A stretch of 64,000 nt of DNA, from the IMG/VR virus record IMGVR_UViG_3300008954_002609, positions 32,001 through 96,000 of that record; one strand, written 5' to 3'. Positions 3,490 to 51,992 of the stretch are shown here, one piece after another. The position numbers and the translations under genes were made by a program. The notes beneath the pieces are model-generated. The model made no database searches, was not told the DNA's origin, and was given only the letters and a program-made list of their open reading frames with translations. Origin of the DNA: a virus. Every line of letters starts with the position of its first letter. The stretch's first letter is position 1.

Positions 3490-4459
3490 CACATAAATCC
3501 CCCGTAGGAATTGCCGTATCAGTTATTCTAAACCCTAGGTCCCTATCCCTATATGTCTTTGTCATTGGGTCATATACGTCGCTGTCAAAATCTATCTCCA
3601 CATATGTCGCCAATTCGTTCTTCTGGGGAACGTCCGATTCCTTCAACAACAATGCTAGCAACTTTTCCTCCACCACTTTCAGTCCATTTTCTATAAATTC
3701 CTCCTCGCCATCAACAAGAAAAAACTCAACTTCAAAATTATCATCAGAGACTGGAACGTTATCTTCTACTATATCCAATATAATATAACTCTTGTCCTTT
3801 GATACATTTAGCACATACCCGTCGACAAATTCTATCTCGTTCTCGTCGCCGTATTGCGTCTGATATTCTTCGATGTCTATCGTTTCTTCTGGCGGGGTGG
3901 TGGTTGCCTCCAACTCATAATCCACTATCATATTTATCTGAGGACGTCTGTATCCAATATTTGGACCCGAAGCACTGACCTCTATCGGTGTTTCGAATCT
4001 CTGACTATTTTTACTTGCAATGTTCCACGACGGAACATACCTGTTTCCAGTCTGTGAGTTTCCCAGCAGATTTCTCATTAACTTTCTATCGTCGGGAGTA
4101 ATAGATATGTCATCCACATAATCTTTTCCATAAAGATCATCACCCAGGACCTTTGCAAGCATGTCAGGATCGTCATCCCCCTCTGGTGCGTTTGTTATTT
4201 GATTGTTTAATCTTGTCACTCTTGATTCCGCACCTTCGTGTTCGTAGAGCGGTCTCATTCTTATCGTGTTGTTTTGTATTCTTTTGTGAGAAGATTTGCC
4301 CGTCTCAAAAGCATTTTCTCCGTAAGACACATCATAAAGAACCTCGTCGTCAGAGAAGGCATAATACACAGGCTCAAATTTGCCCTTTGATAAAAGGTAT
4401 TTGCCGTATTGAGTGAGTTGAACCTCCATTACTTCTTCTTTTTTATTAAAAAACGACAT
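3479..4459 (-). CDS. Putative baseplate/tail-associated structural protein
   Basis: N-terminus QLTQYGKYLLSKGKFEPVYYAFSDDEVLYD resembles the LT-x2-G-x3-L...F-x-DDE pattern of phage tail-fibre/baseplate attachment domains. Follows the gp7-like gene. Confidence 0.6.
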   Translation of the reverse strand: MSFFNKKEEVMEVQLTQYGKYLLSKGKFEPVYYAFSDDEVLYDVSYGENAFETGKSSHKRIQNNTIRMRPLYEHEGAESRVTRLNNQITNAPEGDDDPDMLAKVLGDDLYGKDYVDDISITPDDRKLMRNLLGNSQTGNRYVPSWNIASKNSQRFETPIEVSASGPNIGYRRPQINMIVDYELEATTTPPEETIDIEEYQTQYGDENEIEFVDGYVLNVSKDKSYIILDIVEDNVPVSDDNFEVEFFLVDGEEEFIENGLKVVEEKLLALLLKESDVPQKNELATYVEIDFDSDVYDPMTKTYRDRDLGFRITDTAIPTGDLCDDD

Positions 4460-7400
4460 TATTTCTTAGGAACCCCCTTGATAATCATGGAGAAATGATT
4501 TGCAGTATCAAATTGCCTAGGTGAGTCTTCCTCCTCCTTGTTAATTGAGATACCTGCTGTTCTAGCCACCACGCTTGCAATCTCCTCTCTTGTGAGTGGT
4601 TGTGATATATCTTCCTGTCTCGCAAAGCCAACTTCTGCCTCCACTTTAACTAGTTCGACGAGAGAGAAATAATCATATGGCCAATTATATCCATAATCAA
4701 AAATATCATTCTCAACTGATACCTCTCCGTCTGGGTGTCCGTTTGGTAATCTATCCCTCTTCATTTTCTTGAAGTAGTTTGTTTCTGCCTTCTTCTTAGC
4801 CTTGAACACCAGCCATTTTACTCCTTCATTCAATTTTTCATCGGACAGTAACCCACCATTTTGTGTCAATTCATGAGAAACTACTGCTTCTGCTTGGAGG
4901 CTGTCGCCAGAGTCCTTATGGAAGTTATTCAAGGCTACATCCGGTGGTAGATTTTGCCACATAAGAGCAATATCATTCTTTGATAAAGTGTGCTCAAACT
5001 CAAAAATATACATAGCGAAAGGAGATATAAAATTCTCCTCTGGATCGTTGTACTTCAAGAAATTCATCTTTGGAGGGATAACATATCTCAGCATCTTATC
5101 TACCATGTCCTGGATGCTCTTTCTTGGAACGATTGGCTCTGAGTGTCCGCTTCGTCCGCTCGCGTTTTGTGACGTGGTGGTTGAGCCCATTTCCACTGCT
5201 TCGATTTCCGACTTTTTGTATTTGGAAAAGCCTGCTGCCTGAACAGCCTTGTAGACCTCGCTTTTTGGCAAAACAAAGAATTGTCTTTTTCCGTTCGCTC
5301 CCTCAATGAACGGAACAGCAACAACTGCCTCTGAGATCTTTCTCTCTTCTGGCATTTGCCCGATCGAAACCCTCTTCACTTCATTGCCCAATTCCTTACC
5401 TTGTGATACGAAGTGCATTCCCAGCAACTCATCCAATGGTGCGCTGGTAGAATTTCTCTTGGTAGGTCTAATCTCCATAAAACTAATCGGAGTCTTATAG
5501 GATCCAGTTTGGTGCCACATCCCCAGCGTCTTTGTGAGCCCATATGGCTTTGGTTGTACTGCACTTGCCCTTCTAAAGTCCATATTGGGGGTCTCCCATT
5601 TGGACTGTATTATCCAAGACTTTCTTAGTATGTCCGCGTCTTCTCTGGTGTTCTCCTTAGTTGGCAATAGGCTAGCTTCACTAATATCGATTCCGTTAAA
5701 GCTCGACGAAATTTGCATTGCGTGCGACTTATTCAAAGATTCTATAATAGGCTGGATACTGTTTCTTGAACCCGGCTTACCGATGGCAAAATCACTATTC
5801 GTAAGTCCACTAAATATATAATCTGTTGAACCTGCAGAGCCTGTGCCCTTTACAAACCTATTATATTTAATAGTATTTGTTCCCAATTTGTTTTGCGTAG
5901 TTATCGTCTCTAGGACGTCTTCCACTGACTCATACTTGACACCCACTTCCGGGGTGAAAGTGTATTCCACTTCTGCATAACTATCGTAATGAGGCGGAGT
6001 AAATGGAGAAAATCCATGACCGGGATATTCTGTTTTGTCTCTCCCCACCTCTTTCCAGGATCCGGACGAGTTTGCATCTACCGGGGGACCGAATGCTTCA
6101 GGTCTATTGTATATAGGAAAGTCTTCAGTCGGTGGACGATACAGCCTCAGAGTCATCTTATACGTCTTGTTGGGGTCTACAGCCTGCTTTAGCACATCTG
6201 CGGACTTTAGAATCGTAGAGTGCCCGCCCTTTAAGAAGAAATTCATAGTTTCTGCAAAGAAGTTGTTTGAGGCTTTCGTATAATTTGTTTGACCCAATGC
6301 TCGCATTTCCGTTAAGCTAAAGCTGGATGTCATTGCCGAAGACGTGGTTGGAGTGCCTCTTACAAAAGTCTGGGCGTATGTATCCTCACCGTAGGCGAAC
6401 AAGCCCCGAGAGTGTGGGTCCATGGCATTGATATCGTTAGTATTGTGAATACCCGCGTTAGCCGTTCTGTTGCCGCCTCCTATGTTTCTCATAAACGAAC
6501 ATGGTTGAAGACTGGCACTTGGGTGTGGCTCCGTCTCGTAAAATACGACCCTTTCGTCCACGAGTGCTGTATTCACATTCGCACCAACTCTAGTAACAGT
6601 ATTACTCTGCAGTCTTCTGGGGTCTATTACTGCTTCGAAAGGGATTCTCTCCACTCTCTGTATGCCGCCGTATGGGCTTGACGATCCCGTTGACCAATAG
6701 CTCATGTAGGATGTGGGACCGTAAACGCCGTAATTTGAGCCACTCAACACACCCATACTGTAACTAGCAGATCCTATTCTAGGTATTCCGCCATCCATGG
6801 TCTCATTATATGGTGAGCCAGTTATATAAGTCGGATACTTGTAGGCACCCGTGAGCATGTGCACAGCTCCAGTGAGCCACGCATCGCCAAACCTGGTTAT
6901 GCCGCCGCTGCCGTCGTCCTTAAATACCTTGGAGTCGATTTCTTGCCAAACGTCACTGAATCCTGTAAATTGTGCATAAGAAAGAGTCTCTACTCGACCG
7001 CCAGAGCCACTGAGTCCAAACTTGCCAGCATCTGCATATAGGTCCAGTGCATGATTTCTCATATTCTGTTGGTTTGTCATATACGCAGATCCAGAATCTC
7101 CGGCAGTCATATACCCGTAGTCATTACCCATTCTATACCATCCAACTAAATTCTTGGCTTCGTTCTTGCCAACACACACATCGGGGCGGAATGGTGTGCC
7201 CAGCTGTGGTGCGTCAGTCGCATATGATCCATATGACTCACCGCCGTGAAGACCCAGGATAGATGCTGTTGACATTTGCTTATTCCATATGGTCACTTCT
7301 GCAACTGCCATTTCCATTGAGCCGCGCATAATATCTTCTGGGTTTGACCCTGTTGCTGCGCGGGTGTTACCTATCGAACAGTTGTGGTCTCCGGTTACGG

Positions 7401-10400
7401 GTGGCTCAAATACCAGAGCTGTTTCATTCAAAGTTCCTGCAGACCTTGTCAATTCGTGTTGGTAAGATTTACCATTTAGATAAAACGCAGGAGCGGAACC
7501 ATCAAACTTTTTCGTAACCGCCATATGGTGCCACAAGTTACTACTGCTAAGGATCCTTTTCTTTGTTTGCCACTCTTTATAACTGCTGCTTCCGTGCCAC
7601 ATCCCGAAAACCAGCCTGCCTCCTCGCTTCAAAAACTGGATACCTTCTGTGCAATTGTTATCATCGCCAATATGTATCAAGCTTCCAGAGTTTTCCGGGT
7701 TGTTCGTAGCATCGTCTGGATCTTCTTTGAAGTTGGCCCACATAGAAAAGCTTATTCCTGAAGTTGCTGCAGTGGAAGCTTTTCTGATACTTCCTGTCAC
7801 CATCTTCATCCAATCTTGTGCCTGACCTATATCACACCTATTTGTAGATCCAGATCCATTGAAAAGGGTGACAAACTCCAAATATGGTCTATCTTTCTTG
7901 GGAACGAAGACTGGATAGTCGACCGCGATACCAGACTTTATAGAATTATATGTTATCCCTGGGGAGTAAAAGGGAGCCAGAGCTGTTCTCCAGTGAGCAT
8001 AGTTACTACCAGTGGTAGTATAGTCTTCCGGAGTTATCGAGGTTCCTGGTCCATATGTACTCTTGAAAGTCTCCGCTAACTGAAGGGTTCTCTGGGCTGG
8101 ATAGAATCCCTTGTATGGCAGAAGCTTCTTTAGTGCCTTGCACTTGAGTGTCAAGTTAGCAGGGTGCATTTCTAATGATCGGTGCCCACTCTTCACTATT
8201 TCAAAATGCTTTATAAAATCACTATGACCATATACCTTAAAGAAATCTCCTTGGCTGCTATTGTTATAATTGTCTGAGGCTCCTGTCAAAGACAAGAAAT
8301 CCGATTGGAAACAATCAAAGAACGGGTCTTGCGATGGGCTGTCCATATAATCCGACATATGATCGCTGATCCTATACTCTGGTATTACAGAATACTCTTT
8401 CCCAATTATTCTCATGTCCTGGGCGTAATCATCATAATTTTCGTAATTAAATGGATATCTTCCTGCTTGATCTCCCGCTTCCCACTTGGCTGCTCCAGCT
8501 AAATATGTATTGGTTGAAGCACTCACCTTAAGGAAGTTTGCCAACAGAGACACATGCCTTATCCCTGTACGCACAGTCTCGACCCTGGCACCGTCCATGC
8601 TGGTGTTGAGAGTATAGTCGGTGCCCGAAAATCCGCCTCGGTACCCTGATGTTGGCCAACGGGACTTTTCATGAACCCCCCTAAATTCTAGAGTCACCTT
8701 GGCTCCACTAGAACTAGCCTTTATCCTAGGCTTTATACCACTGTGTGTATTTATTGTTTCCTTTATTGCATCGGCAATACCTGCTTTGGTGTAACTAGAC
8801 TGCGACAGGCAAACTGCTATAGTGGGTCTACCCGTGCCCCAAATCTGTGTCTCTCTTGTTACCTTCAATGCTTCCGTCTTAACGAAGACCAGAGAAAACT
8901 CGTGTTCCGTACCTGGACCGTTAAAGACAATTTCCATGTAGCTGTTTTCTACGCCACCTGTTGAATACGTGTTCCAGCTGTCGCCGTAAGTGGATTTATT
9001 CCAATAATTTTCTCTGTTAGCCTCTTCCACAGTTAAGCAATAGGTCCATGGAGTTTCTGGGAATTTTCTAGCATACAAGGCTGAAGCACTTGGGTTGCCC
9101 CACCAAGTATTACTCCCAGACCTGAATAAACTATAAGAAGACATCAATTCGCCCTCTCCAAAGGTTCCCGGAACATCAGTGCCTAGGCTTATCTCTTTCG
9201 AAGTCCCAAAATTCTCTTGTGCATCGAGGGGCCACATGCTGCTTGTGATTCCGATGTGTTCGCCCTGTGAGTTTGGCTCTGAGACGCCTCTATCCGACCT
9301 CTTTGTCTTCCACCAATCTATAACAAAATTTTCTCTCTTTCTTGACTTGTTTGAATAAGAGTTAACATCTCTTGGGTATATCGTGACAGGATACACTGAT
9401 TGCACTATATTTTTCGGCATCTTGGTGCTTAGTGCCTCTGACATATCGAATATTTGATCAATTTGTAAGAACCTTACCAATTCAGGGTTCGAGAATGTCA
9501 CCAAATCATTCAAGTATGTGATCTTTCCTCCCGAAGCAATAGATCTACCTCCTGGTGTTCTAAGTAGGGCTGCTCTCATGGTGGTGAGTGCTACGGGAAC
9601 GTTAGACGATTCATCGATAGAAGCAATTGCAGTGGTTGTAAGCGGCTTGGAGTAGGTGACCACTGATTCGGTAAATCTGTACCTTTGTGAAGAGATTGTT
9701 CTGCTTGTTCTTGTTTTCGTGTGTTCGATATTTTCCGGCCAAGAATAATCTCCATCCGTAAAATAGGATGGAGAGAAGGACATCATTTCGGGATCATCTC
9801 TCCTAACTGCAAGTGAAAATATATTTTCTTTTCTTAATTTTCTTGCAACAGGGTGGTCGCCTGCCCTTAATTGCTTCCATGTCGGGTACCCATGTATAGA
9901 TCCTCTGTTTAGTAACATGTGATTGAGGGTGTGTGCCCTCAATCGAGCCTCGATTGAACTAGTGAGTAGACCACCACGGGAATCAATTGGTGCCAAGCCA
10001 CCTAGCGTGTTGTTGCTTTGTGAGACATGCTCGTATATAATAGAATTCAGTCCGAGAAAGTCAGTTGGTATACCAGGGTCCGGGCGGTTAGTTAGTGCAT
10101 GATCAACCCCGTAAGAGAGGAGCCTATTTGCATCGCTTGTTCTCAGACCCCTATCGCTCGCGGAAAGAAAAGTGGGGGACTCAAAGTCGACCGCATTTGC
10201 TTCATTCGTCTCAAATATTTTTTCGTTGGTCTGGGACTTTGGATAGGTAAAGTTCGATTCAAGTCTGTTATAACTACATGTTGTCTCTAAGGTCGAATTT
10301 CTAATCCATGCGTACCCGAGATCACTCTGTGGTATTTGATGTTGTACAAAATTGTTGTCATACTTTGGTCTGCATTCATGCCCAGACTCATCACTCGATG

Positions 10401-13400
10401 TTGCAACGTATCTGGGGTTTCCTTGCACCTTATGATAGGATGCTGTAGTTGTTGATGAAGTTATCGAACTGTTATGCGTGGCACCAAATTGTCCCATCCT
10501 GTCAGTAGACCACTCATTTAGCGCCAGTCTTGCCATAAGGTTTCTATAATTTAGGGTATTATAAACCGAATATTGATTTGTTGCGACATCGAGACCAGGA
10601 CCACCTAAACTATCGCCCGCTGTCTCGACTCCGCCAGGGGCAGAGAATCTGTTAACAAAGACATTCTTTCTTTTCGGTCTTTCATACTTCCTTCTTTCGT
10701 TAATCTCTACGAAGTATGGAGAATTAGTTGTTGTGCCAATAGGCTCATTCGACGCAGTGCGTATCAAGAACACTGGACTCATCTCCACTGATGTTCCCTG
10801 AACTATTTCATATTCGTGCTTGTAGTTGCCGATATTTAATACTGTGTCCTTTGCGTACTCACTTGCTGTAGTCTTTATATTTCTTATATTGACTGGCCTC
10901 TTTGCCAATGGCTCCCTAAGCACTCTGGACCTATTATGGGTACTAGAGGTCAAAGACACATGAAAAGTTCCCGGTGGCTCGTGATTCAATGCATACAAAT
11001 TCGGGGAAGTAACGTACAACTGACCTTGAGACATTGTTAATGCAAACGCCTCGAATCGTCGACCCTTGTGGTCCAGGCTCATTGTTGTGTTTTGCAAGGC
11101 TGGGTCGGCTTGTGGTATCTTTGGTCTCATCATGTTCAGGTGCTGATGTCTGTGAGAGTGTCCACCCACCCAATGTTCCGTAAATGGAGACTGAATAGGG
11201 ATCTCCCTGTCGTCACCATAAGCATCTGAGTGGAGATTTGTTATGTCTATGCCCTTCTTAAAGTTATCATAAATTTCAGCCTTGTAGTCAGTTGGCACAT
11301 CTGTTGAGCTACTATACATACTAAAAGGGGCTATTGTATTAAGGTCAAAGTCAGCATTTGTGTTTGATATGTCTGCTTTGCCTCCAAGCCTCTTCTTTTC
11401 AAAAACCTCTGATCCAATGCCGTTTCCATATCTTGGATGATAAACGTCTGTGCATTCTTTTCCAAAATCAACATCGGACCCACTTATTCTAATAAAATCT
11501 TTCGCGCCAGGATTACTTGTCCCAAGAAAGAAATCCTTTTTCTTGTTTAGGTGAAAGTTGTCTCCAGCGTGCACAACAGGCTGAATTTCTGCCTTTAGTC
11601 TATATGGCTTTGTTAAGCTACGAAGAGTATAACTGGTACCTGAAACCTCAGTGTAAATTGTCCTTCTTAGCGTTTCTCTCTCGGCGTCTGTTGCAGATAT
11701 ACCAGATGATAAAGAAGTTTCTTTTCTCCCTGCTCTCTCTGACCACCACAAACAATTCTCAGTCTGCAAGGCACTGCCAGAAGGCTTGTATATGCCGGTA
11801 TGCTTGAGTAGTGGAGCGTGACCAAACTTCCAGTTATACACTAGTTCATTTATTGATTTAATTTGACCAGGTTCTGGCTCTGCTTGCTTCCCCTCCAAAG
11901 TAGGGAACTTAGCCCAGTACTTGTTTCTTTCGAGAACATGACTCTCTATCATATTCCTTATATCTTCGGAAAAATCTGCAGATGCTGGCTTCAACTGGTC
12001 TAGCATTGAAGACAGTGCCGAGTCTATCCACTTATAAAACTCAACGTACTTCTCTATGTCTGGAGTATTCTCTATTCTGTCAAAAAAGAGTTGCCTTAGC
12101 TTCTCCATTGACTTATAGTTTGGTCTGTATCTATTTACGGGCTCTCCGATTAAATTACTAAAGTCCTTTATTGTTGCAAACATATCTAACATCTCTTGAG
12201 ATATTGCCTGATACATGCTCTTTTCTATTGAAAAGTTATAATTTATCGGTTTAGAGTCTCTGGTAAATGTCTGTTCATCTCTAGACAGGACCCTAACCAT
12301 ATTCGAGCTTTGCACGTTTTCTGGTATGTTTTGTCGGGACATCTCCAGGAAAGCAACCGTCACACTGGAAGTGGAGTTTGATTGAAAGAAATCTCCGCGA
12401 CCAGGGTGGTTTGTTGCCACCACGTCACCTGCCCAGCCATAATCCCTCTTGTTTTTGAAAGAGCCAGATGTTATGTCGTCTATTATAAATTGACCACCTG
12501 TCGAAGAGCCTGTAACCGTAGTAAAATCCCAATTCAACGCAAGAGTGTCGATTGATGGGACGGGATTGTCCAATCCTGGCATAAAAGTGTACGCATTCCT
12601 CATTGGGTGAGGCACACCGTAAGCCTTTGGATCTATCGAGTGAGCTTTAATAGTCTCGTTATCTAGATAAGATAACCAATGACGCAAAGAAGAAACATGA
12701 ACGTCCGACAAAGTCTTTGTGGAGCCTGCAAAGTCTGTTCTGTGGGCTCCGGCGTACAATCTTTTAGAATATTGGTGGAACCTTTGACCTTGGGCGTTAG
12801 TTAAGGAGGATGTTAGATAAAATTTATCCTTTACCTCTCCTGCGTCTGTTCTAATTCCGTAGTACTCTATTTGATAAGAATTCGTAGATCCAGAAATCGT
12901 GTTACCAAACGTTCCCTTCGGTGCAACTCTAACTGCGAAATTCCACTTTGTTCCGTCATACACGTCATAGAATACCGGGGATTCCATTGCGGATACTATC
13001 CCAGAGGTAGACCTTATGACAAATTTTGCATTTCTAGAGTGTCGTTCGTCCTTTACAGCATAGGTCTCGAAATTCGCAAAGTCTTTTGCGCTGGCTGGCC
13101 AAGCCAAATCAGTCCCTGCTCCTTTGACAGTGTGTGCACCAAACAAGGAGCTTGATACGTTGGTGGAGATGAACCCAGGCTCGCCAGGGCGGTGTACCTT
13201 CGGAAAAACAACCTCTGCTTCCGTCGTGAAAGATAAGCCAACAGAGGAATCATTTCCGTGAGCACCAGTAATATATCCAGAAACAGGAAATTCTGAAGAT
13301 TTGTTGCCCCTCCCAAGACTGGAACTATACTGATATATGGTTGCAGAATGATTATGAGGGTGATAGAAATTTATACACCTTGTCTTAAGGCTTGATACAC

Positions 13401-15231
13401 GATAATTTTGCTCTACAGGATAATCTACTCCGTCGGCATACATGTTTATCTTTACAATCTCTTCATCTATTCCGTAACACCTTAACAGATTTCTGAATGC
13501 CTTCTCCGTGCCTTTGGATTTATAAATGTGGACAAGATTGTTATAAATGTTTTGATATATTACATTTTTTACATCTTCTAATCTCTGTTCATAATTTCTC
13601 TTTTCATCTCGTGAGGCGAATGCGGATAGCACATCTGCTTCTATGAAGATCTCCGGCGTTTCAAAACCAGCAGATCTTAGCATGGTATCCATGAAAGGGA
13701 GTGGCTTGTTACCATAATCTTGGTTTCTAAGGTGCTTTAAACTTGCTAAGTGCTGTATTTGCAGGAACAATTCATCAAAGTACGAGCCCATTATTTGGGT
13801 AAGCTTTCTTAATTCTCCATTGTCATCCTCTTCCAGAATCCACCCAGGTACAGAGTGATATATTGCAGCGTTGTTTGAGACGTCATACGTTTTTCCCAAT
13901 TCCCTCACATCATCCAAGTACTTGTTGAGCTTGGGGTTCTCCACATGTATTATTGGTTCCGCGAACTCCGTTGCCGAAGCCGAAGATTGGATTATTGCTG
14001 ACTTGATACTTCTTGCTCCGGAGGCATAGCCAACCCAGTTTCCGTTAGATACTCGACCCGAATAATCCAGAACAACCTTGTCTATACTGCTTGTTAGGGT
14101 TATCCCCTCATTAAACTTATAATAGATGCCCAAATCAACATTTGGATCTTCAACGTTCGACCCACCATCAACCTGAGCGAACCAATTGCGCCCAATGTCC
14201 TTGGATGACCTTTTCGTCTTCCAAAACCTAAACTCGTCCAATGAGCCAGATAGCTTACCAAATCCCAAACCAGGATTCAAAGAAGAATCCGAATCGTTCA
14301 AATCTGTCCCACTTGCGTCTTTTGCTGCAACAAGTGATCCGATGTTTGCCACCAGCGTGGTGTTCAAGCCACCTACGGATGAACCAGTGAGGAGCTGATG
14401 ATTCAGGTCTCCGTCCACATACATTCTGTAGTTGACCTGGCTTCCAGTATTCTGGAAGGCAAATGCGTAGTGGTGCCATTCTCCGTCTGATGCACTAGCG
14501 TAAAGACCAGCTGCACCTGAGACTATTAGATTCTTGAAGCCTGTTGATCCTGACCTGTAAGTGACTACCCACGGAGAGTTCTCCGTGGAAAGAGAACTGT
14601 CAAGCTCTATTGTTAGACGACCATATTTATGATCACCAGGTGTAGAACCCGATGTCCAAGCATCAAAGAGAACTTCTCTCTTTGTCAGAGACTGGTATGC
14701 GTCCTTCTTTAACCAAAATTCTACCGTGTTGCCGCGGCCGCCGTTAATGGTTAAATTCGATGTTCTATTGCTTGCCGTGCTCCACACGTTGTCAATATTA
14801 GGTCCGCCCTTTATGTAGACATATTCTTTTGTAGCGGGATTTCCATAGCTTCCTGATGTTGATACTCTAGATCCCCAGCCTGAAGGTGAAAACTTTATAT
14901 AACCGTGAGTTCTCGGGTATTCGTTCTCAAGTAAATAAAGATCAAGACCAGGAGAGTCGTTCACCCATTTTATTTTTTCAAACGAAGAGCCATCATACGG
15001 ATATTGTTCGTAAATTCTCTTTACGGCTGATTCATAGTATTCTTCCGCTAAACCAAACTTCGCAAAGTTGGAAGCGGTGGAATAGTTCACATGAGGTTTG
15101 AATTTTATCTTTCTCTTTACATACTCATCAATGTATTGACCGGATTCGATATCCTCAGTCAGATTATTGATCGTCGTTCCTGGCAGCATTTGCAAGGATT
15201 TTGTTTTGCTAAAAAGATTTTTTAAACTCAT
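4459..15231 (-). CDS. Giant baseplate wedge protein (T4 gp7 / P2 gpI-like) with LamG (concanavalin A-like) domains, 3590 aa
   Basis: IYKSKGTEKAFRNLLRCYG matches the gpI/gp7 KGT motif (about 13480-13530). LamG signatures TVEFW...DGEWHHYAF...MYVDG...LDEFRFW (about 14730-14200) and SFSMW...WHHMAVT...FYLNG...AEVTIWN...LVGWYRM (about 7760-7130). Downstream of gp25 and gp6. Confidence 0.75.
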   Translation of the reverse strand: MSLKNLFSKTKSLQMLPGTTINNLTEDIESGQYIDEYVKRKIKFKPHVNYSTASNFAKFGLAEEYYESAVKRIYEQYPYDGSSFEKIKWVNDSPGLDLYLLENEYPRTHGYIKFSPSGWGSRVSTSGSYGNPATKEYVYIKGGPNIDNVWSTASNRTSNLTINGGRGNTVEFWLKKDAYQSLTKREVLFDAWTSGSTPGDHKYGRLTIELDSSLSTENSPWVVTYRSGSTGFKNLIVSGAAGLYASASDGEWHHYAFAFQNTGSQVNYRMYVDGDLNHQLLTGSSVGGLNTTLVANIGSLVAAKDASGTDLNDSDSSLNPGLGFGKLSGSLDEFRFWKTKRSSKDIGRNWFAQVDGGSNVEDPNVDLGIYYKFNEGITLTSSIDKVVLDYSGRVSNGNWVGYASGARSIKSAIIQSSASATEFAEPIIHVENPKLNKYLDDVRELGKTYDVSNNAAIYHSVPGWILEEDDNGELRKLTQIMGSYFDELFLQIQHLASLKHLRNQDYGNKPLPFMDTMLRSAGFETPEIFIEADVLSAFASRDEKRNYEQRLEDVKNVIYQNIYNNLVHIYKSKGTEKAFRNLLRCYGIDEEIVKINMYADGVDYPVEQNYRVSSLKTRCINFYHPHNHSATIYQYSSSLGRGNKSSEFPVSGYITGAHGNDSSVGLSFTTEAEVVFPKVHRPGEPGFISTNVSSSLFGAHTVKGAGTDLAWPASAKDFANFETYAVKDERHSRNAKFVIRSTSGIVSAMESPVFYDVYDGTKWNFAVRVAPKGTFGNTISGSTNSYQIEYYGIRTDAGEVKDKFYLTSSLTNAQGQRFHQYSKRLYAGAHRTDFAGSTKTLSDVHVSSLRHWLSYLDNETIKAHSIDPKAYGVPHPMRNAYTFMPGLDNPVPSIDTLALNWDFTTVTGSSTGGQFIIDDITSGSFKNKRDYGWAGDVVATNHPGRGDFFQSNSTSSVTVAFLEMSRQNIPENVQSSNMVRVLSRDEQTFTRDSKPINYNFSIEKSMYQAISQEMLDMFATIKDFSNLIGEPVNRYRPNYKSMEKLRQLFFDRIENTPDIEKYVEFYKWIDSALSSMLDQLKPASADFSEDIRNMIESHVLERNKYWAKFPTLEGKQAEPEPGQIKSINELVYNWKFGHAPLLKHTGIYKPSGSALQTENCLWWSERAGRKETSLSSGISATDAERETLRRTIYTEVSGTSYTLRSLTKPYRLKAEIQPVVHAGDNFHLNKKKDFFLGTSNPGAKDFIRISGSDVDFGKECTDVYHPRYGNGIGSEVFEKKRLGGKADISNTNADFDLNTIAPFSMYSSSTDVPTDYKAEIYDNFKKGIDITNLHSDAYGDDREIPIQSPFTEHWVGGHSHRHQHLNMMRPKIPQADPALQNTTMSLDHKGRRFEAFALTMSQGQLYVTSPNLYALNHEPPGTFHVSLTSSTHNRSRVLREPLAKRPVNIRNIKTTASEYAKDTVLNIGNYKHEYEIVQGTSVEMSPVFLIRTASNEPIGTTTNSPYFVEINERRKYERPKRKNVFVNRFSAPGGVETAGDSLGGPGLDVATNQYSVYNTLNYRNLMARLALNEWSTDRMGQFGATHNSSITSSTTTASYHKVQGNPRYVATSSDESGHECRPKYDNNFVQHQIPQSDLGYAWIRNSTLETTCSYNRLESNFTYPKSQTNEKIFETNEANAVDFESPTFLSASDRGLRTSDANRLLSYGVDHALTNRPDPGIPTDFLGLNSIIYEHVSQSNNTLGGLAPIDSRGGLLTSSIEARLRAHTLNHMLLNRGSIHGYPTWKQLRAGDHPVARKLRKENIFSLAVRRDDPEMMSFSPSYFTDGDYSWPENIEHTKTRTSRTISSQRYRFTESVVTYSKPLTTTAIASIDESSNVPVALTTMRAALLRTPGGRSIASGGKITYLNDLVTFSNPELVRFLQIDQIFDMSEALSTKMPKNIVQSVYPVTIYPRDVNSYSNKSRKRENFVIDWWKTKRSDRGVSEPNSQGEHIGITSSMWPLDAQENFGTSKEISLGTDVPGTFGEGELMSSYSLFRSGSNTWWGNPSASALYARKFPETPWTYCLTVEEANRENYWNKSTYGDSWNTYSTGGVENSYMEIVFNGPGTEHEFSLVFVKTEALKVTRETQIWGTGRPTIAVCLSQSSYTKAGIADAIKETINTHSGIKPRIKASSSGAKVTLEFRGVHEKSRWPTSGYRGGFSGTDYTLNTSMDGARVETVRTGIRHVSLLANFLKVSASTNTYLAGAAKWEAGDQAGRYPFNYENYDDYAQDMRIIGKEYSVIPEYRISDHMSDYMDSPSQDPFFDCFQSDFLSLTGASDNYNNSSQGDFFKVYGHSDFIKHFEIVKSGHRSLEMHPANLTLKCKALKKLLPYKGFYPAQRTLQLAETFKSTYGPGTSITPEDYTTTGSNYAHWRTALAPFYSPGITYNSIKSGIAVDYPVFVPKKDRPYLEFVTLFNGSGSTNRCDIGQAQDWMKMVTGSIRKASTAATSGISFSMWANFKEDPDDATNNPENSGSLIHIGDDNNCTEGIQFLKRGGRLVFGMWHGSSSYKEWQTKKRILSSSNLWHHMAVTKKFDGSAPAFYLNGKSYQHELTRSAGTLNETALVFEPPVTGDHNCSIGNTRAATGSNPEDIMRGSMEMAVAEVTIWNKQMSTASILGLHGGESYGSYATDAPQLGTPFRPDVCVGKNEAKNLVGWYRMGNDYGYMTAGDSGSAYMTNQQNMRNHALDLYADAGKFGLSGSGGRVETLSYAQFTGFSDVWQEIDSKVFKDDGSGGITRFGDAWLTGAVHMLTGAYKYPTYITGSPYNETMDGGIPRIGSASYSMGVLSGSNYGVYGPTSYMSYWSTGSSSPYGGIQRVERIPFEAVIDPRRLQSNTVTRVGANVNTALVDERVVFYETEPHPSASLQPCSFMRNIGGGNRTANAGIHNTNDINAMDPHSRGLFAYGEDTYAQTFVRGTPTTSSAMTSSFSLTEMRALGQTNYTKASNNFFAETMNFFLKGGHSTILKSADVLKQAVDPNKTYKMTLRLYRPPTEDFPIYNRPEAFGPPVDANSSGSWKEVGRDKTEYPGHGFSPFTPPHYDSYAEVEYTFTPEVGVKYESVEDVLETITTQNKLGTNTIKYNRFVKGTGSAGSTDYIFSGLTNSDFAIGKPGSRNSIQPIIESLNKSHAMQISSSFNGIDISEASLLPTKENTREDADILRKSWIIQSKWETPNMDFRRASAVQPKPYGLTKTLGMWHQTGSYKTPISFMEIRPTKRNSTSAPLDELLGMHFVSQGKELGNEVKRVSIGQMPEERKISEAVVAVPFIEGANGKRQFFVLPKSEVYKAVQAAGFSKYKKSEIEAVEMGSTTTSQNASGRSGHSEPIVPRKSIQDMVDKMLRYVIPPKMNFLKYNDPEENFISPFAMYIFEFEHTLSKNDIALMWQNLPPDVALNNFHKDSGDSLQAEAVVSHELTQNGGLLSDEKLNEGVKWLVFKAKKKAETNYFKKMKRDRLPNGHPDGEVSVENDIFDYGYNWPYDYFSLVELVKVEAEVGFARQEDISQPLTREEIASVVARTAGISINKEEEDSPRQFDTANHFSMIIKGVPKK

Positions 15232-17172
15232 TTACTTTTCTACTCTAAACTTAAAAACCTTATCTTGCACAACGTGTCTACCCTCCAGATCATAAGCAAA
15301 CTGAATACCATATGAGTAGCCAGATTCGAACAGAGACATGTTAAGGTCAAAGTAATTCCCCTTCTTATCATACGATAACTTCGTATATTTTGTCTGCTGA
15401 CCGGCAGAACCCGTCCCAAATGGTACCACGTCTAGCCGATCAATTATCCTATAAATTCGATAATATCCTTCTTTTACTATTGAAGGAGAAGTCTCGGCTG
15501 TCGCAACATTGTAAATATTTGGTTGCCAATTCCTCTCTCTAATAAAAACCCTGAATCTAACTTTGTCACTTTGTGAGTATGATTCTTTAAAATTGCTTAT
15601 ACTAGTGACATAACCTTGGATACCTGGGTTATAATCATACGCATTGTGTTTCTTTACCTTAAATACTGAACCAGTCACCAACTGTATCCCTTGAGATACT
15701 CCTGTCGGCTTACTCCAGACGTCGAATATTTCGCTTTCAGATCCTGTAAATGCAAAAGAAGCAGAATAAATGCCAGTACTGACCCAGCCTCCGGTTACAA
15801 CTGTGGCACCATCGACGGTTACGCCACCTCCTATTGGCAACGTTTTCGCCTTTATAGCTGTATTTTTTACGTTACCTGATGGAAATAACTGTAGGTTTAT
15901 TTGTGTATACGCGCTGTTGCTGCCAGAATTTCCGCCTAAGACTGGAATGTTCTTTAATTTTCCATTTACGATATTGTATAAATATAGAGTATTTAAATTG
16001 TCTTCACCTGTTAGAAGCGAGCTACTAAGATGAAAGTCTCCCCTGTCGTCACCTATTGAGTCATCCCAGCGGGCTTCAATGAGCGGTCTCTTATAGAAAT
16101 ACTCAGACCCTCTTGCGAAAAATTTCTTAGTATAATAGGACCTGTTGTATCCTCCATTCTCATACGACCCAGACATCTTAAGCATGATACCATAGTTCTC
16201 TCTATCGGGGTCCACCGTTGATTCAGCTTCTATCCATTCTTCCACCAAGGCGGTTACATTTAATTCTAAGTCTTCTGTACCTTTTTCAAAATACTTGGAA
16301 TAGTTTGGCAAATTACGGCCGGCAGTGTATCCAACTTCATGATAATCACCGCCCTCGGTGGACCATCGGATTTTACCACCGTGCTGAACCGTAGTAACAG
16401 TCAGGTGGCTAGTAGATATGTTTCCCTGGAATGATCCAGAAACTCCTGCTGATCCCGTTGTTGTGATCCTAACTGTTGCCCCTGCTGAATCATCCGTATC
16501 GTCATAAGACACAGATGCAGATAGTCCCGTTTCGTATGTTCTGATGGATCCGCTCAATATATTAGCCATCTGTTTGACTGTGCTTATACTGCCAGTGAAC
16601 GGAACCGTAATCTCTACTCCAGGCAAAGCTGCTGTGATTGCGTCGGAATCTGTTTGAAAAACAAAATTAAACCTTTTGTTATCCGCGTTATAAATAGTAA
16701 AATATTCGTTCTTGAGGTTTCCTTTTGTGGTTGTTATAAACTTTACGTCTGTTATGTTCTGCTGTAGCGTGTTTGAAGCCATAATCCAACTAGCTTCGTC
16801 ATTGTCCGTGTACTCTTCCATATCAAGACCCTGTCCCTCGTCCCAGGACCTAGAAACAGGAAGAACATGCAAATTGAATTTCTTAGGTAGGCTGTCACCG
16901 TGAGGACAATTAAACATTCTTAAGAAAAACCTTACAGACCCAGACTCAGGTATATCTCCGTTTGTTCGATCCGTGGTGATAGTATCTACAGGAAACTTAA
17001 CCAACGCTCTTGCTTTTTCTAGAGACGAAGTTGTCGATTGTCCATATATGGAAAAGACTTCTAAAATATCTGACTCACCCATATTTGACCCAGTAGCCCT
17101 CGTGGATAAGTCGTTCTTAAATGCGTTTGTAATGGTTGTGTCTGCGTTTGCAGTATATCTCTTTATAGCCAT
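15232..17172 (-). CDS. Virion protein with DNRLRE/CBM96-like domain
   Basis: Motifs ADTTI...NMG...RALVKF...SRSWDEG...W-x3-GGD...LNVTALVEEW...NYGIMLK...F-x3-S...RPLIEARW are typical of DNRLRE domains. Located between gp6 and the gp7-like gene. Confidence 0.65.
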   Translation of the reverse strand: MAIKRYTANADTTITNAFKNDLSTRATGSNMGESDILEVFSIYGQSTTSSLEKARALVKFPVDTITTDRTNGDIPESGSVRFFLRMFNCPHGDSLPKKFNLHVLPVSRSWDEGQGLDMEEYTDNDEASWIMASNTLQQNITDVKFITTTKGNLKNEYFTIYNADNKRFNFVFQTDSDAITAALPGVEITVPFTGSISTVKQMANILSGSIRTYETGLSASVSYDDTDDSAGATVRITTTGSAGVSGSFQGNISTSHLTVTTVQHGGKIRWSTEGGDYHEVGYTAGRNLPNYSKYFEKGTEDLELNVTALVEEWIEAESTVDPDRENYGIMLKMSGSYENGGYNRSYYTKKFFARGSEYFYKRPLIEARWDDSIGDDRGDFHLSSSLLTGEDNLNTLYLYNIVNGKLKNIPVLGGNSGSNSAYTQINLQLFPSGNVKNTAIKAKTLPIGGGVTVDGATVVTGGWVSTGIYSASFAFTGSESEIFDVWSKPTGVSQGIQLVTGSVFKVKKHNAYDYNPGIQGYVTSISNFKESYSQSDKVRFRVFIRERNWQPNIYNVATAETSPSIVKEGYYRIYRIIDRLDVVPFGTGSAGQQTKYTKLSYDKKGNYFDLNMSLFESGYSYGIQFAYDLEGRHVVQDKVFKFRVEK

Positions 17173-18962
17173 TAGACAATTCTACCTTCTATATCAATTT
17201 GTGGATATTTCATTTCCAAGATAGCAGTGCTTGGAGGAGTTATGACGCGACCACCTTCAGATGAATTACTCTTTATACTGAAAAGGATCTCAGAATATGG
17301 TGCGCCTGCTTTATTGAATATTTCAACATTTGCAACGTCAACCACTGCTGGAACATCTTTAAGAGCCTTGAATATGTCTGATACAGTGATCGGTTCGCCT
17401 ATTTCTCTTACCTCTGTAGTAATTTCCTCTACCACCAACTGAGACTCTCTCAGTGCTTGGTGTCGGTTCGCGTTTTCGTCTATCACTATGTCGTATCTTA
17501 CCCCGTAGTTTATAATTCTTGCATCTAGAATGTCAATAGTGTCGTTTATCATTCTAGCACTATTGAGCCAAGTTCTTAAATTTCTCTTTATTGTTGAGTT
17601 AGCCCTGGTTAGAGTTCCGTCGGGAGCCTCAGACAAGACATACAAGTTAAGATTCCTTTTGAAAGAATCTCTATCTTTTTGAATGGTGCATCTCTTTATG
17701 GCTCCAAAATTAGCCGGCATGGCATAAGTCATGCTCACGTAGTCCTGTTTTGTTACTGCTCTGTTTTGTGCCGCGAAATTAGCCATGGCGCGGAGCTTGA
17801 CCTCCTCTACGTTGGGTAGAGAAACATCTCCAATAATGGGCTCCGAGTTTGAAACTTCCAGGCTGCTTGCTATGAATCTTCTGGTTGATCTATCCAAATT
17901 TAATACGTCAACAAAGTCCATAATCGGAGAGGTAACTCTCACTATCCTGTTGGCTCCAGCGTTGACGCTCTCTGCTGTATTCGCCCTGTATACTATTCTT
18001 AACATAGTATTCGCTGGGGCGACTCCAAACTTATCTGTAGATGTTAACTTAACTGGATCGAAGTTTGTATCTGATATAAAGTTTTTACCGTGCCTCTTAA
18101 GTGTGATGTTCGCAGGATCAGCCACCGAACCTGAAACTAATTCTGTTTCTGATCCGTATCCAAATTGCAGGGAAGTCATTGTGTCAATGTGAGTGACGCT
18201 GAACCTCCTAGGGACAGACATTGCTTTTAATAAATTTGGCACAGAATCATTCTTAGCATTACTGTTGGTCACAGGCTTGAACACCGTATCTTGTGATAAA
18301 TGCTCCACTTCATGATAAATATGACCTTCTGAGTCAGATACCGATATCACTTCTGTTATATTTGTATCTGGAATATCGATCGAGAGGAACCTCTGGAAAT
18401 CTCCAACTTCGACTGTGTGGACCCTATTTTCTCCGGACATTACTCGCCCTTCGGACTTCACAGCATAATAAGTAGGTGCGCCGGTTTCCTCGTTGACCCT
18501 TGCAACAACAACCTCGTTTGATGATTCTGCGAAAGATATATCGTCCATCAGTGAATACGGCATACCACGCTCTGTCTCAACCCGCGTGCCCGTTCTAAGA
18601 ATCGGGGCGTATCTCAGGTCTGGTCCCCCATCTGAAGCCGCTGGGACTAGCGCGTAAAATTGACACATCCCATACGAAGCAGGGGATTTGTTTAATTTAT
18701 ATCCCAAGAACTGGGACAGCTTTAGAACATTTGTATACTCCCCGGCTGTTGCAAAAAAAGACTCATTTGCCTGATAGTCTAAATAAAACGATAGCATATC
18801 TCCAACATACGCCACCGTGTCTATCATCAGAGAACCAAAAGAAGCTTCACTGAAATCCTTAAATGTATCCGGATAATACCTCTTTGTGTGTTGTAGTAGG
18901 GACCTTCTTATACTCGTAAAGTCTCTACTTGTGTAATCAATGGGTATATTCTTCTTTGGCAT
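17172..18962 (-). CDS. Baseplate wedge subunit (T4 gp6 / Baseplate J-like)
   Basis: IDYTSRDFTSIRRSL, DTVAYVGDMLSFYLD, LQFGYG and AQNRAVTKQDY motifs. Directly after gp25. SD AAGGAGAGG upstream. Confidence 0.9.
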   Translation of the reverse strand: MPKKNIPIDYTSRDFTSIRRSLLQHTKRYYPDTFKDFSEASFGSLMIDTVAYVGDMLSFYLDYQANESFFATAGEYTNVLKLSQFLGYKLNKSPASYGMCQFYALVPAASDGGPDLRYAPILRTGTRVETERGMPYSLMDDISFAESSNEVVVARVNEETGAPTYYAVKSEGRVMSGENRVHTVEVGDFQRFLSIDIPDTNITEVISVSDSEGHIYHEVEHLSQDTVFKPVTNSNAKNDSVPNLLKAMSVPRRFSVTHIDTMTSLQFGYGSETELVSGSVADPANITLKRHGKNFISDTNFDPVKLTSTDKFGVAPANTMLRIVYRANTAESVNAGANRIVRVTSPIMDFVDVLNLDRSTRRFIASSLEVSNSEPIIGDVSLPNVEEVKLRAMANFAAQNRAVTKQDYVSMTYAMPANFGAIKRCTIQKDRDSFKRNLNLYVLSEAPDGTLTRANSTIKRNLRTWLNSARMINDTIDILDARIINYGVRYDIVIDENANRHQALRESQLVVEEITTEVREIGEPITVSDIFKALKDVPAVVDVANVEIFNKAGAPYSEILFSIKSNSSEGGRVITPPSTAILEMKYPQIDIEGRIV

Positions 18963-18980: not shown

Positions 18981-19376
18981 TTAAATAGTCTGCGATGTAC
19001 TTATTTCAAGAATATCATCTGTCTGGAGACCGTCAATCGTATACAACAATTGTATTGATATTGGGACCCCCGATGACATGTAAAGCCCTTGTTCTGGTGC
19101 CTTTATTGCTATGTTCTTTATTTTCACGAATGGCATATATCTCTTTATCTGTTGGGTGATCTTACCTCTTATATCATCGTAGGTGAACTCGTTAGCTAAT
19201 TCGAAAAGATACCTTCTCAAACCAACGCCGAAAAGAGGATCCATGACTCTCTCTCCAGGGGAAGTCAATATAAGCATTTTTAAATTTTGTTTCACGGCGG
19301 CATACACCGTTTTATTCATGACGTAGCCGTCTTGGGCATCTATCTGTAACGGCAATTTTACTGAAACTGAAGGCAT
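18981..19376 (-). CDS. Baseplate wedge / sheath initiator (T4 gp25 / P2 gpW-like)
   Basis: KQNLKMLILTSPGERVMDPLFGVGLRRYLFE is the gp25 signature; 131 aa. Confidence 0.93.
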   Translation of the reverse strand: MPSVSVKLPLQIDAQDGYVMNKTVYAAVKQNLKMLILTSPGERVMDPLFGVGLRRYLFELANEFTYDDIRGKITQQIKRYMPFVKIKNIAIKAPEQGLYMSSGVPISIQLLYTIDGLQTDDILEISTSQTI

Positions 19377-34159: not shown

Positions 34160-34996
34160 TTATACAACCGCACGACCCTTGAGGTTTTCCCAATCTTTTT
34201 CTGGTCGTACTTCTAAATTTGTCTGCCATGCTGCCTTGATAACATTCGCATTGACTCCGCATTGGCCGGCGAAGGCAATAAATGCGTTAATGTCCTTTGG
34301 AAAGCAGCTGCCTCCGAATCCCCATTTCCCGTCTGGTCCTGGAACGTTCAAGTGCGAATCCCCAACTCTTCCATCTGCTGCAAATCCAGCAAGTGCCAAG
34401 TCCCAATCCACGTTTGCTTTTTCACAAACTAGCTTCATTTCATTCGCAAAAGCAACCTTGACTGAGAAGAACACATTGTTAAAATATTTTATAAATTCAG
34501 CAGTATTGAAATCTGTCTTCATTATATTACAGTGCTTGAACCTCGTCCTATAAAGTTCCGCGACCTTGCTTGTGTTCTCCGGAGAGCCCCCCAGGACTAT
34601 CCTAGCCTGATTTAAGAAATCATATTTCGCATGTCTCTCTGTTAAGAATTCAGGATTAAAAACAAGATTTAAATTTGGAAACTCATCCGAGAAAGACTGA
34701 GTGGTTCCGGGGACTATTGTGGACTTAATTACCACTACATTATCGTTTCTATCACTAACATTGCTTATATCCCCCAACACCTCTCTCACTATACCAAGAT
34801 TTATGGACCCATCTTTGTTCATCGGGGTTGGCACAGAAACGAAAATTATATCAGACTCATTAACCGTTTCCTCTAGTGAATTCATGCTCCTAAGAGGGTC
34901 CTTATCGTGAACCAATACCGGGATTACGGGAACAAAACCAAAGCCTATTGCTTGCCCCACGAATCCATTTCCAATAATACCTACTGCCTTAATCAT
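34160..34996 (-). CDS. ugd: UDP-glucose/GDP-mannose dehydrogenase family protein (short form)
   Basis: GIIGNGFVG, SVPTP, IKSTIVPGT, FNPEFLTE and catalytic GFGGSCFPKD. Start moved to the ATG at 34996 (GGAG upstream). Confidence 0.9.
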   Translation of the reverse strand: MIKAVGIIGNGFVGQAIGFGFVPVIPVLVHDKDPLRSMNSLEETVNESDIIFVSVPTPMNKDGSINLGIVREVLGDISNVSDRNDNVVVIKSTIVPGTTQSFSDEFPNLNLVFNPEFLTERHAKYDFLNQARIVLGGSPENTSKVAELYRTRFKHCNIMKTDFNTAEFIKYFNNVFFSVKVAFANEMKLVCEKANVDWDLALAGFAADGRVGDSHLNVPGPDGKWGFGGSCFPKDINAFIAFAGQCGVNANVIKAAWQTNLEVRPEKDWENLKGRAVV

Positions 34997-35831
34997 TCGC
35001 AAACTCCAAAAAACACTCTCTTATTCCCTCAGATATCTCCACTTGAGGTCTCCACCCCAAATCAAGCAAAGGCTTCACATTTGCCTTAGTCAACCTGACA
35101 TCTCCTGGGCGCTCTTCAACATAATCAAACTTTAAATCTGGCAGTGTCTCTTTTACCAGCTTCTTCATTTCGTTTAGGGAAATATTGTTTCCAGTTCCGA
35201 CATCGTAAACATTGCCAGAAACAGAATCCATATTGTTCATACAGAAGATGTTCGCAGATACGACATCACTGACATGTGCCATGTCCCTCCTCTGATCTCC
35301 GTCTCCCGTTATATACGGGATCTTCCCATCTTTTATAAACCTTCTCCAATTAGCAACACATGTGGCGTATGGCCCATCAGCGACCTGGTCCACCGAATAT
35401 ACATTAAAGTACCTTAATGCGACGGTATCTACATCATAAAGCCTTTTATATAGCAAGGTTTCGACTTCTCCAACATGTTTGGACAGCGCATACGGGCTTT
35501 CTGGTCCAGATCCGTTACCTACCACGGACGACGAGCTAGAATATACCACTTTAGCTCCTACTTTTTTTGCAAATTCCAAAACAAGAGACGTAGAGTGAAC
35601 GTTGTTGTGCATAACTTCCACTGGGTTCTCAATGCTATAAACTACTCTTGGGATCGCTGCCAAATGGAAGATGACTTCTGGTTTAAAAGCCAGGTGCTTT
35701 TCCTGGAACCCGTCCAAGATGTCTTCTCCCATCTTGAGATCTATTCCCATAACATTGTGACCCAAAGAGTTAAGTTTCCAAAACAAATTCTGACCAATGT
35801 ATCCCATGTGACCAGTCACCATCACGTTCAT
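34989..35831 (-). CDS. NAD-dependent epimerase/dehydratase
   Basis: TGHMGYIG, HLAA, YSSSSSV, YALSK, LRYFNVY and GDGDQRRD motifs. Confidence 0.92.
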   Translation of the reverse strand: MNVMVTGHMGYIGQNLFWKLNSLGHNVMGIDLKMGEDILDGFQEKHLAFKPEVIFHLAAIPRVVYSIENPVEVMHNNVHSTSLVLEFAKKVGAKVVYSSSSSVVGNGSGPESPYALSKHVGEVETLLYKRLYDVDTVALRYFNVYSVDQVADGPYATCVANWRRFIKDGKIPYITGDGDQRRDMAHVSDVVSANIFCMNNMDSVSGNVYDVGTGNNISLNEMKKLVKETLPDLKFDYVEERPGDVRLTKANVKPLLDLGWRPQVEISEGIRECFLEFAND

Positions 35832-36511: not shown

Positions 36512-36514
36512 CTA

Positions 36515-51991: not shown

Positions 51992-51992
51992 C

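Follow-up and report, generated by a model that had tools for sequence, protein, structure and literature searches.

A block of minus-strand genes in a 64,000-nucleotide stretch of DNA from an uncultured marine phage (the window; positions 32,001 to 96,000 of IMG/VR record IMGVR_UViG_3300008954_002609) encodes two neighbouring proteins of 646 and 3590 residues (p646 and p3590), in which the tripeptide [S/T]-G-S, written [ST]GS below, is strongly (five- to tenfold) over-represented. The question raised by this locus is what keeps so short a pattern in such proteins and which genes, if any, are connected with it. We scanned the whole source contig, a viral sequence of 104,467 bp with a CheckV completeness of 37%, and compared it with related and unrelated phages. 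The results indicate that [ST]GS is probably a tag that is maintained by selection and read in trans. As a candidate explanation, drawn from the comparison of genomes, the tag may be an O-glycosylation site served by a pair of phage-encoded glycosyltransferases (GTs), a possibility to which we give about an even chance.

Expected numbers of [ST]GS were calculated from each protein's own composition. On this basis p646 (15232..17172, minus strand, directly downstream of the gp6 gene) contains 11 motifs versus 1.08 expected, and 11 of its 12 GS dipeptides are preceded by serine or threonine. For p3590 (4459..15231, minus strand), which is encoded two genes downstream of gp6 and is by synteny a putative outer baseplate or fibre protein, the corresponding values are 25 motifs versus 5.08 expected and 25 of 43 GS dipeptides; the binomial P for serine or threonine in front of GS is 1e-7 in p646 and 3e-9 in p3590. 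The observed counts were reached in none of 20000 residue shuffles of p646 and in none of 5000 of p3590, and a first-order Markov null, which preserves dipeptides, was exceeded as well (P=1e-3 and 2e-5, respectively). An earlier note on this DNA, made from the letters alone, had reported these counts for p646 with about one motif expected, about 25 motifs in p3590, none in a 3157-residue neighbour and one in gp6, and it had described the motifs as dispersed and not as tandem repeats; all of this could be reproduced, and the enrichment proved significant against shuffled proteins.

As the pattern had been picked by that reader after it had been seen, all 8000 tripeptides were ranked without pre-selection. 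TGS and SGS turned out to be the two most over-represented tripeptides in p646, p3590 and a further protein of the contig, p570, each ranked separately. Position 1 of the motif is S or T, position 2 is Gly with Ala as a distant second (SAS 15 versus 4.5 expected), and position 3 is strictly Ser: SGS is found 40 times, SGT 8 times versus 5 expected and SGA 6 times versus 3.9, and GSS is without enrichment. At position -1, I/L/V are favoured. In the six enriched proteins of the contig, the 67 motifs are encoded by 53 different 9-mers, and their flanks are as unlike each other as random windows are (z -1.3 to +1.4). The signal therefore lies at the protein level and is not the product of repeats; a DNA-level motif was ruled out by the diversity of the 9-mers, and hidden repeats or a common domain were ruled out by that of the flanks. 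The excess of [ST]GS is real and specific under all nulls tested.

Across the whole contig, 72 motifs were counted versus 25 expected, and SGS ranks first among all tripeptides. Four enriched proteins are encoded beyond the window. The densest motif carrier is p570 (570 residues, fibre-like; G000 98632-100344, L098:2632-4344, minus strand) with 19 motifs versus 2.9 expected; its N-terminus is built of x-I-S-G-S units that recur every 10 residues (residues 54-119), and the protein ends in ...FLSGSGVSG. The others are p518 (partial, fibre-like; 6 versus 1.07 expected) and the paralogues p421 (3 versus 0.56) and p433 (3 versus 0.63). Within p3590 the motifs are clustered in residues 1-330, 780-1250 and 2400-3250, and its sole Pfam match is a Laminin_G_3/ConA-like domain (residues 2488-2658). 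Pfam and PHROG searches of p646, p570, p518, p421 and p433 gave no family match, nor did a tblastn search with p646 against the phage collection give a match.

The boundary of the enrichment is formed by a gp6-like baseplate wedge protein (17172..18962, minus strand; PHROG baseplate wedge matches), which itself is not enriched (1 motif versus 0.42 expected): proteins encoded downstream of it are enriched, proteins encoded upstream are not. The latter include a gp25-like baseplate wedge protein (18981..19376, minus strand; Pfam GPW_gp25, 3.9e-11) with 0 motifs and, upstream of gp25, the giant protein p3157 (19381..28854, minus strand), which served as internal negative control and has 0 motifs versus 1.64 expected. 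All genes of this region lie on the minus strand. A putative capsid protein, BLAST-homologous to T4-like capsid genes, contains 1 motif versus 0.76 expected, and other conserved proteins of the head and tail core, putatively labelled sheath-like and portal-like, contain none. Judging from their synteny downstream of gp25 and gp6, the enriched proteins are probably components of the outer baseplate and fibres. Their S, T and G contents exceed those of the remaining proteome, and the rest of this contig's proteome contains 5 motifs versus 13.7 expected. General avoidance of the motif outside the tail proteins was considered and dropped, as the corresponding numbers are 40 versus 32 in the rest of the Flavobacterium phage immuto proteome and 36 versus 26.5 in that of the Microcystis phage Mel-JY01.

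The excess extends to a large clade. More than 4200 homologues of p646 were found in marine metagenomes, and the best 120 of them contain 933 [ST]GS versus 113 expected. Of 58 IMG/VR loci found via gp6, nearly all show a 4- to 8-fold enrichment in the proteins downstream of it, and the upstream ones are at or below expectation. The earlier note had spoken of two baseplate proteins; both are enriched, but the scope was too narrow, since at least six proteins of this contig and nearly all proteins downstream of gp6 in its relatives share the property. Among phages with sequenced genomes, the motif is in excess in immuto (117 versus 46 expected; SGS rank 1 among tripeptides), in Mel-JY01 (140 versus 55; SGS rank 4, behind a low-complexity repeat) and in Rhodothermus phage RM378 (51 versus 19; SGS rank 2). 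SGS is not among the top six tripeptides in LR756508 (109 versus 80), T4 (19 versus 27), P-SSM2 (113 versus 85) and HTVC008M (55 versus 36; mild enrichment at most). In T4, gp34, gp37 and gp7 have [ST]GS at expectation, as have the giant proteins of P-SSM2 (5195 and 2506 residues), and in LR756508, a 484-kb megaphage, P<0.01 was obtained for only 3 of 473 open reading frames (ORFs). The relatedness of the LR756508 gp6 (31% identity) equals that of the immuto and Mel-JY01 proteins, and this megaphage has homologues of p421, p433, p332, p3590 and p646. Over 41 loci, the motif loads of p646 and p3590 orthologues are weakly correlated, with a rho of 0.41 for density and of 0.20 for observed/expected (not significant), both values being without phylogenetic correction. 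Mel-JY01 additionally possesses (PP395634.1, 635-5655) an 805-residue low-complexity protein rich in SGT/TSG/GTS with 37 [ST]GS, which, together with an enriched 508-residue protein, adjoins a 1234-residue ORF with a GT1 domain.

Whether the motif belongs to the fold of its carriers can be judged from its position, its loss and its turnover. An AlphaFold2 (AF2) model of p646 with a predicted local distance difference test score (pLDDT) of 72 shows a chain of Ig/FN3-like beta-sandwich domains. In this model, 10 of the 11 motifs are located in coil or at a strand-loop boundary, three of them in low-confidence loops, and solvent exposure was judged from the DSSP and pLDDT strings. Within the p646 family about eight sites are conserved in position (27, 77, 245, 334, 476, 500, 587 and a column near 604), and the others are variable. 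One lineage, L124 (IMGVR_UViG_3300009173_000025, 3419-13413), which is represented in the viral and metagenome scans by just one 44-kb contig and a 12.5-kb relative, encodes orthologues of p646 (36% identity) and p3590 (34% identity over 1716 residues) with only 1 and 2 motifs, respectively. At the family-conserved sites its p646 orthologue has NDH, DTD, SES and IGG between conserved strands, and five of six conserved p3590 columns are likewise replaced. A second variant is found in the C-terminal domain of the LR756508 p646 orthologue, where both flanking strands align and the 8-residue loop with the family-invariant site 587-589 is absent. The p3590 family behaves differently again: in 12 orthologues, 224 motifs are spread over 124 alignment columns, of which 6 are common to half or more of the sequences, and 117 motifs are in columns seen in no more than two sequences, a turnover figure that is inflated by alignment error in the variable C-terminal part. 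Motif density is thus kept in p3590 orthologues, and positions are not. Loss of many sites in two proteins at once and constant density with moving positions are what a tag read in trans predicts, unlike a structural turn; [ST]GS is unlikely to be a fold element and is not confined to a turn of one particular fold. As to the composition of the L124 orthologues, serine makes up 5.9% versus about 10%. Another p646 orthologue (L107, 11788-13275) has lost several of the conserved sites and contains two new SGS in a stretch of about 20 extra residues, peculiar to its lineage, that follows the position of site 334; evidently, loops with the motif can also arise anew.

Phyletic profiles were compiled for every ORF of this contig, immuto and Mel-JY01 against seven other genomes. 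With this contig as query, only one protein, of 703 residues, is present in all motif-positive genomes and in no motif-negative genome. With the complete immuto genome as query, the sole tracking gene is the orthologue of this 703-residue protein, and with the complete Mel-JY01 genome it is the gene of a 226-residue GT2 located directly downstream of that orthologue. In none of these genome-wide profiles did a gene other than a GT follow the motif, kinases, chaperones and proteases included. The 703-residue protein is encoded in a glycan island next to a GT4 of 421 residues, and we refer to it as the partner. Among the approximately 30 genes of the island, two are conserved in immuto and Mel-JY01, namely those for the 421-residue GT4 and for the N-terminal 420 residues of the partner. 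In this phage, immuto and Mel-JY01 the pair follows in the same order a PD-(D/E)XK nuclease gene, which here lies at 59871..60824 (minus strand; Pfam PDDEXK_1, 1e-20) and serves as syntenic anchor; the nuclease is also found upstream of a lone GT4 in LR756508, where the partner is absent. RM378 has the GT pair in tandem (Rm378p013 and Rm378p014). Of 30 longer contigs with gp6, 18 also carry the partner gene, which in G005, where its position was checked, lies about 34 kb upstream of gp6; the contigs without it end before its position, as verified for G004 and presumably, in view of their low completeness, for the others. Among the compared genomes, the motif excess co-occurs exclusively with the partner/GT2 genes, and relatives without the partner lack the enrichment.

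The 421-residue GT4 (58592..59857, minus strand) is the first gene of the island, directly after the nuclease. It matches Glycos_transf_1 (2e-13; 50.6 bits, above the gathering cut-off of 26.4), GT4-conflict (9e-7) and phrog_2170, and it is conserved in immuto, Mel-JY01 and RM378 as well as in the motif-negative LR756508. The Mel-JY01 orthologue (PP395634.1, 83441-84932) is annotated as two ORFs of 190 and 302 residues, which may reflect a split gene or a sequencing frameshift. The partner (56505..58616, minus strand) is composed of an N-terminal GT4-like GT-B domain of about 420 residues and a C-terminal domain of 283 residues. Its Glycos_transf_1 score of 23.1 bits lies under the cut-off of 26.4, and many of its homologues carry PF00534. 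An EX7E motif is invariant in 42 homologues (H286-G-E288-G-x-G-L-P-x-x-E296-A), and the model of the partner (pLDDT 91) has a GT-B fold, all top Foldseek matches being GT4/GT-B enzymes (3oy2 at E=3e-15); from its EX7E motif and this model the partner looks catalytically competent. By both sequence and structure, the closest solved relative of the two GTs is B736L of chlorovirus NY-2A (PDB 3oy2), with a low degree of likeness (E ~1e-6; 13% identity in the structural alignment). The protein-serine O-GTs SdgB and GtfA are among the structural matches of the partner, alongside many other GT4s, and these matches are no better than those to many lipid or small-molecule GT4 enzymes; the fold therefore does not identify the acceptor. 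For the C-terminal 283 residues (56505-57356, minus strand), no Pfam match was obtained, and Atlas likeness was found only to virus-specific hypothetical clusters; in other lineages, this position is occupied by a GT2 domain or by nothing. The partner family has more than 4100 members, which occur alone (415-430 residues) or fused to the domain of about 280 residues or to a GT2 domain, and the partner and p646 families are found on metagenome contigs of equal lengths. Directly downstream of the partner, a 261-residue GT2 (55738..56523, minus strand; Pfam Glycos_transf_2, 4.7e-16) is encoded, which by its position corresponds to the motif-tracking GT2 of Mel-JY01 and is a candidate orthologue of it.

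The presence of a glyco island near the baseplate genes, as claimed in the earlier note, is confirmed by Pfam: it forms a tightly packed annotated run from 34160 to 59857. Its variable part (34160..55751, minus strand) comprises 22 kb with Pfam-annotated genes for a UDP-sugar dehydrogenase, epimerases/dehydratases, NeuB and a CMP-transferase, a PIG-L deacetylase, a GDSL esterase, formyl-, methyl-, sulfo- and carbamoyl-transferases, a heptose module and further GT2/GT4/GT9-like proteins, and it is mostly not conserved in immuto, Mel-JY01 and RM378. About eight GT2, GT4 and GT9-like domains are recognized by Pfam in the island, and Wzx, Wzy, ABC-exporter and lipid-carrier transferase families are not among its Pfam matches; the island thus presents itself as a set of phage-encoded soluble GTs, with no export machinery among these matches. 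The heptose module (51993-53934, minus strand) consists of a cupin, a small phosphatase-like protein and a PfkB kinase, which are 34-60% identical to gene products of P-SSM2. The other phages compared have at most one of these genes, LR756508 just the one for the 105-residue protein; the distribution points to the module having been passed between marine phage lineages that are unrelated. As its homologues are present in the motif-negative P-SSM2 and absent from the motif-positive immuto, Mel-JY01 and RM378, the tag is associated with the GT4/GT2 core rather than with the heptose branch. When compared at E<=1 with PDB chains, TibC among them, the GT9-like protein (53942-54775; weak Pfam GT9 match, 7e-7) had no match. 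The analogy to the heptosyltransferases AAH/TibC drawn in the earlier note is thus not supported. Its wider claim of a sequon placed by selection and tied to phage glycan genes is supported, as far as selection and the tie are concerned, by the clade-wide excess, the clean controls, the concerted loss with the fold kept, the turnover and the tracking by GT genes; glycosylation is what these comparisons suggest. Between the island and the baseplate genes, a 237-residue protein (32602-33315, minus strand) with a match to a phage late sigma factor family (phrog_234, 3e-7) is encoded, which is conserved in immuto, Mel-JY01 and LR756508. The octamer ACTAWTTA, a candidate late promoter, occurs 5 times in the whole window versus 6 expected and says nothing on the timing of expression.

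From these data the following mechanism can be proposed. In a large clade of aquatic myoviruses, the tag [S/T]-G-S would be kept by selection on the outer tail proteins, i.e. all those encoded downstream of gp6 and the fibres, and would be recognized by a phage-encoded factor acting in trans. The likeliest reader is the 421-residue GT4 together with the GT4-like domain of the 703-residue partner, and the small GT2 might be a further member of the set. While the tail is being assembled or earlier, the GT pair would link the first sugar in the cytoplasm to a Ser/Thr of the tag, and the variable 22-kb island would make the donors and extend and decorate the glycan. We infer the action of the pair on protein, the residue modified, the identity of the glycan and its purpose, which might be shielding, stability or interaction with the host surface. 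Taken as a whole, i.e. as sequon-directed cytoplasmic O-glycosylation in abundant marine and freshwater myoviruses, with a GT4 pair reading the tag and a fast-evolving island of tailoring genes (nonulosonate, heptose, carbamoyl, sulfo, formyl, methyl) diversifying the glycan, the scheme is tentative, and we place it slightly below an even chance. The abundance of the clade is reflected in more than 4000 metagenomic homologues each for p646 and the partner GT.

Several observations weigh against this glycosylation scheme. GT4 enzymes act mostly on lipids, sugars and small molecules. The evidence for the co-occurrence of motif and partner comes from eight complete genomes, four of them motif-positive and four motif-negative, and from fragments, with phylogeny uncorrected, it was compared without the GT region of L124, the sole lineage with motif loss, and the partner match in RM378 (Rm378p014) is weak (22% identity over 419 residues, E=4e-7). 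Neither the capsid protein nor the sheath-like and portal-like proteins are enriched here, unlike in the mycobacteriophage precedent described below. The conserved positions of most p646 sites at strand ends would be predicted by a structural role just as well. Finally, the 421-residue GT4 has its homologue in the motif-negative LR756508 near a ThyA-like gene, as is typical of DNA-base glycosylation, and clusters of DNA-glycan genes near phage structural genes have been documented (bioRxiv 10.1101/2023.12.21.572611).

The points on DNA-glycan genes favour an alternative with a genuine tag that is recognized in trans, though neither by the GT pair nor for glycosylation: it could be modified in another way (for example phosphorylated or acylated), serve for the docking of an assembly chaperone, or form a loop that contacts the host surface or binds ions, and the pair would act on phage DNA bases or on glycans of the host envelope. 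We consider this rather unlikely, yet far from negligible, and glycosylation of DNA bases by the pair is a serious rival. In LR756508.1 (302656-306748) the ThyA-like gene, the PD-(D/E)XK nuclease, a small ORF and the single GT4 stand in a row that resembles hydroxymethyl-pyrimidine glycosylation systems, the GT pair follows the nuclease in every genome, and the GT4-conflict match of the 421-residue enzyme points in the same direction. PF00303 (ThyA-like) matches were obtained for immuto and LR756508 and none in this partial contig, but against the DNA-base variant no such match was found in the complete genomes of Mel-JY01 and RM378; a TET/JBP search (PF12851) matched nowhere, controls included. 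This variant is also weakened because modification of DNA leaves the protein motif unexplained, the envelope-glycan variant has to reckon with island Pfam matches that comprise no flippase, polymerase or exporter family, and other readers of the tag with profiles in which no kinase, chaperone, protease or other non-GT gene follows it. Less probable still is a purely structural role in the beta-sandwich and fibre folds of this clade, for instance as an ST-turn with Gly that ends beta-strands, without any link to GTs. Such a role would account for the position of 10 of the 11 p646 motifs in coil or at strand ends, for the residues of the about eight conserved p646 sites being among the invariant columns, for I/L/V at position -1 and for the 10-residue periodicity of p570. 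It is, however, at odds with L124, which keeps the flanking strands although unrelated residues replace the motifs in two proteins at once, with the deletion of the motif loop in LR756508, with the mostly lineage-specific sites of p3590, with an excess shared by mutually non-homologous proteins with unrelated flanks, and with the lack of any excess in the T4 fibres and gp7, the giant P-SSM2 proteins and the homologous LR756508 tail proteins. Biased composition or mutation in fibrous proteins rich in Ser and Gly, for which the high S, T and G content of the enriched proteins would speak, is excluded as a cause and effectively refuted, with a minimal residual chance: expectations were based on each protein's own composition, no shuffle reached the observed count, the dipeptide-preserving null was exceeded, and the excess depends on residue order and is written in diverse codons.

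If the glycosylation scheme is true, phage virions would for the first time have a defined O-glycosylation sequon in [ST]GS, and a tag of three residues would predict glycosylated virion proteins from sequence across thousands of ocean phages. The lipopolysaccharide (LPS)-like sugar islands of marine phages, i.e. the 'LPS-like' islands, would become interpretable as virion-coat factories, and a variable sugar coat of the tail could affect host range, stability and the evasion of host-surface and grazer defences. The system would also provide a defined enzyme-tag pair for glyco-engineering. The hypothesis is testable now because the cultured phages immuto, Mel-JY01 and RM378 carry both the tag and the GT pair. 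What this analysis contributes is a pair of natural loss variants, phyletic profiles on the scale of whole genomes and the rejection of a link to heptose.

A literature search yielded no description of such a sequon in phages. To our knowledge, no glycosylation sequon is known for any phage, and in the literature we reached, glycosylation of virions by phage-encoded enzymes has been shown only for mycobacteriophages. Freeman and colleagues are said to have described in Cell Host Microbe in 2023 the glycosylation of mycobacteriophage virions by phage-encoded glycosyltransferases. The glycans are placed at the C-termini of capsid and tail-tube subunits (PMC12619734). The mycobacteriophage system resembles the one proposed here in having phage-encoded soluble GTs near structural genes, modification in the host cytoplasm and a proposed role as glycan shield; it differs in that the candidate sites here are formed by a tripeptide scattered over the outer baseplate and fibre proteins and recognized in sequence data, and in that hosts and lineages are unrelated. 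Sugar hypermodification clusters of phage DNA, which add hexose, HexNAc or heptose and are sometimes located beside structural genes, require a cytosine methyltransferase and a 5mYOX/TET enzyme (bioRxiv 10.1101/2023.12.21.572611), the enzyme class at which the above TET/JBP search was directed. Chloroviruses and giant viruses likewise encode cytoplasmic GTs and sugar-nucleotide pathways, with which they build unusual virion-protein glycans at non-canonical sequons, but their hosts are eukaryotic and the glycans are N-linked to the major capsid protein; B736L of NY-2A is a putative GT4 of a virus that glycosylates its own capsid, the substrate of the enzyme itself being unproven (PMC4691112). 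Bacterial autotransporter heptosyltransferases (BAHTs; TibC/TibA, AAH/AIDA-I) share with our proposal the cytoplasmic hyper-O-glycosylation of beta-rich surface proteins; they modify serines, not threonines, and TibC does so in S-G/S-A contexts without a strict sequon (TibA Ser-313 in NSGG, Ser-322 in TSAA) (PMC4358343), a strict tripeptide sequon being absent from the BAHT family. In contrast to these systems, no BAHT-like enzyme was detected here, and the heptose module does not track the motif. The GT4 O-GlcNAc transferases GtfA/GtfB and SdgA/SdgB of Gram-positive adhesins act in the cytoplasm on surface proteins, in which they modify numerous serines within short S-x-S or S-D units. They have in common with the enzymes of this phage the GT4 fold and the organization as a tandem GT4-like pair. 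Their acceptors are long low-complexity repeats, whereas the tripeptides here are scattered through folded domains with unrelated flanks, and GtfB is a non-catalytic partner, whereas the 703-residue partner keeps its invariant EX7E motif.

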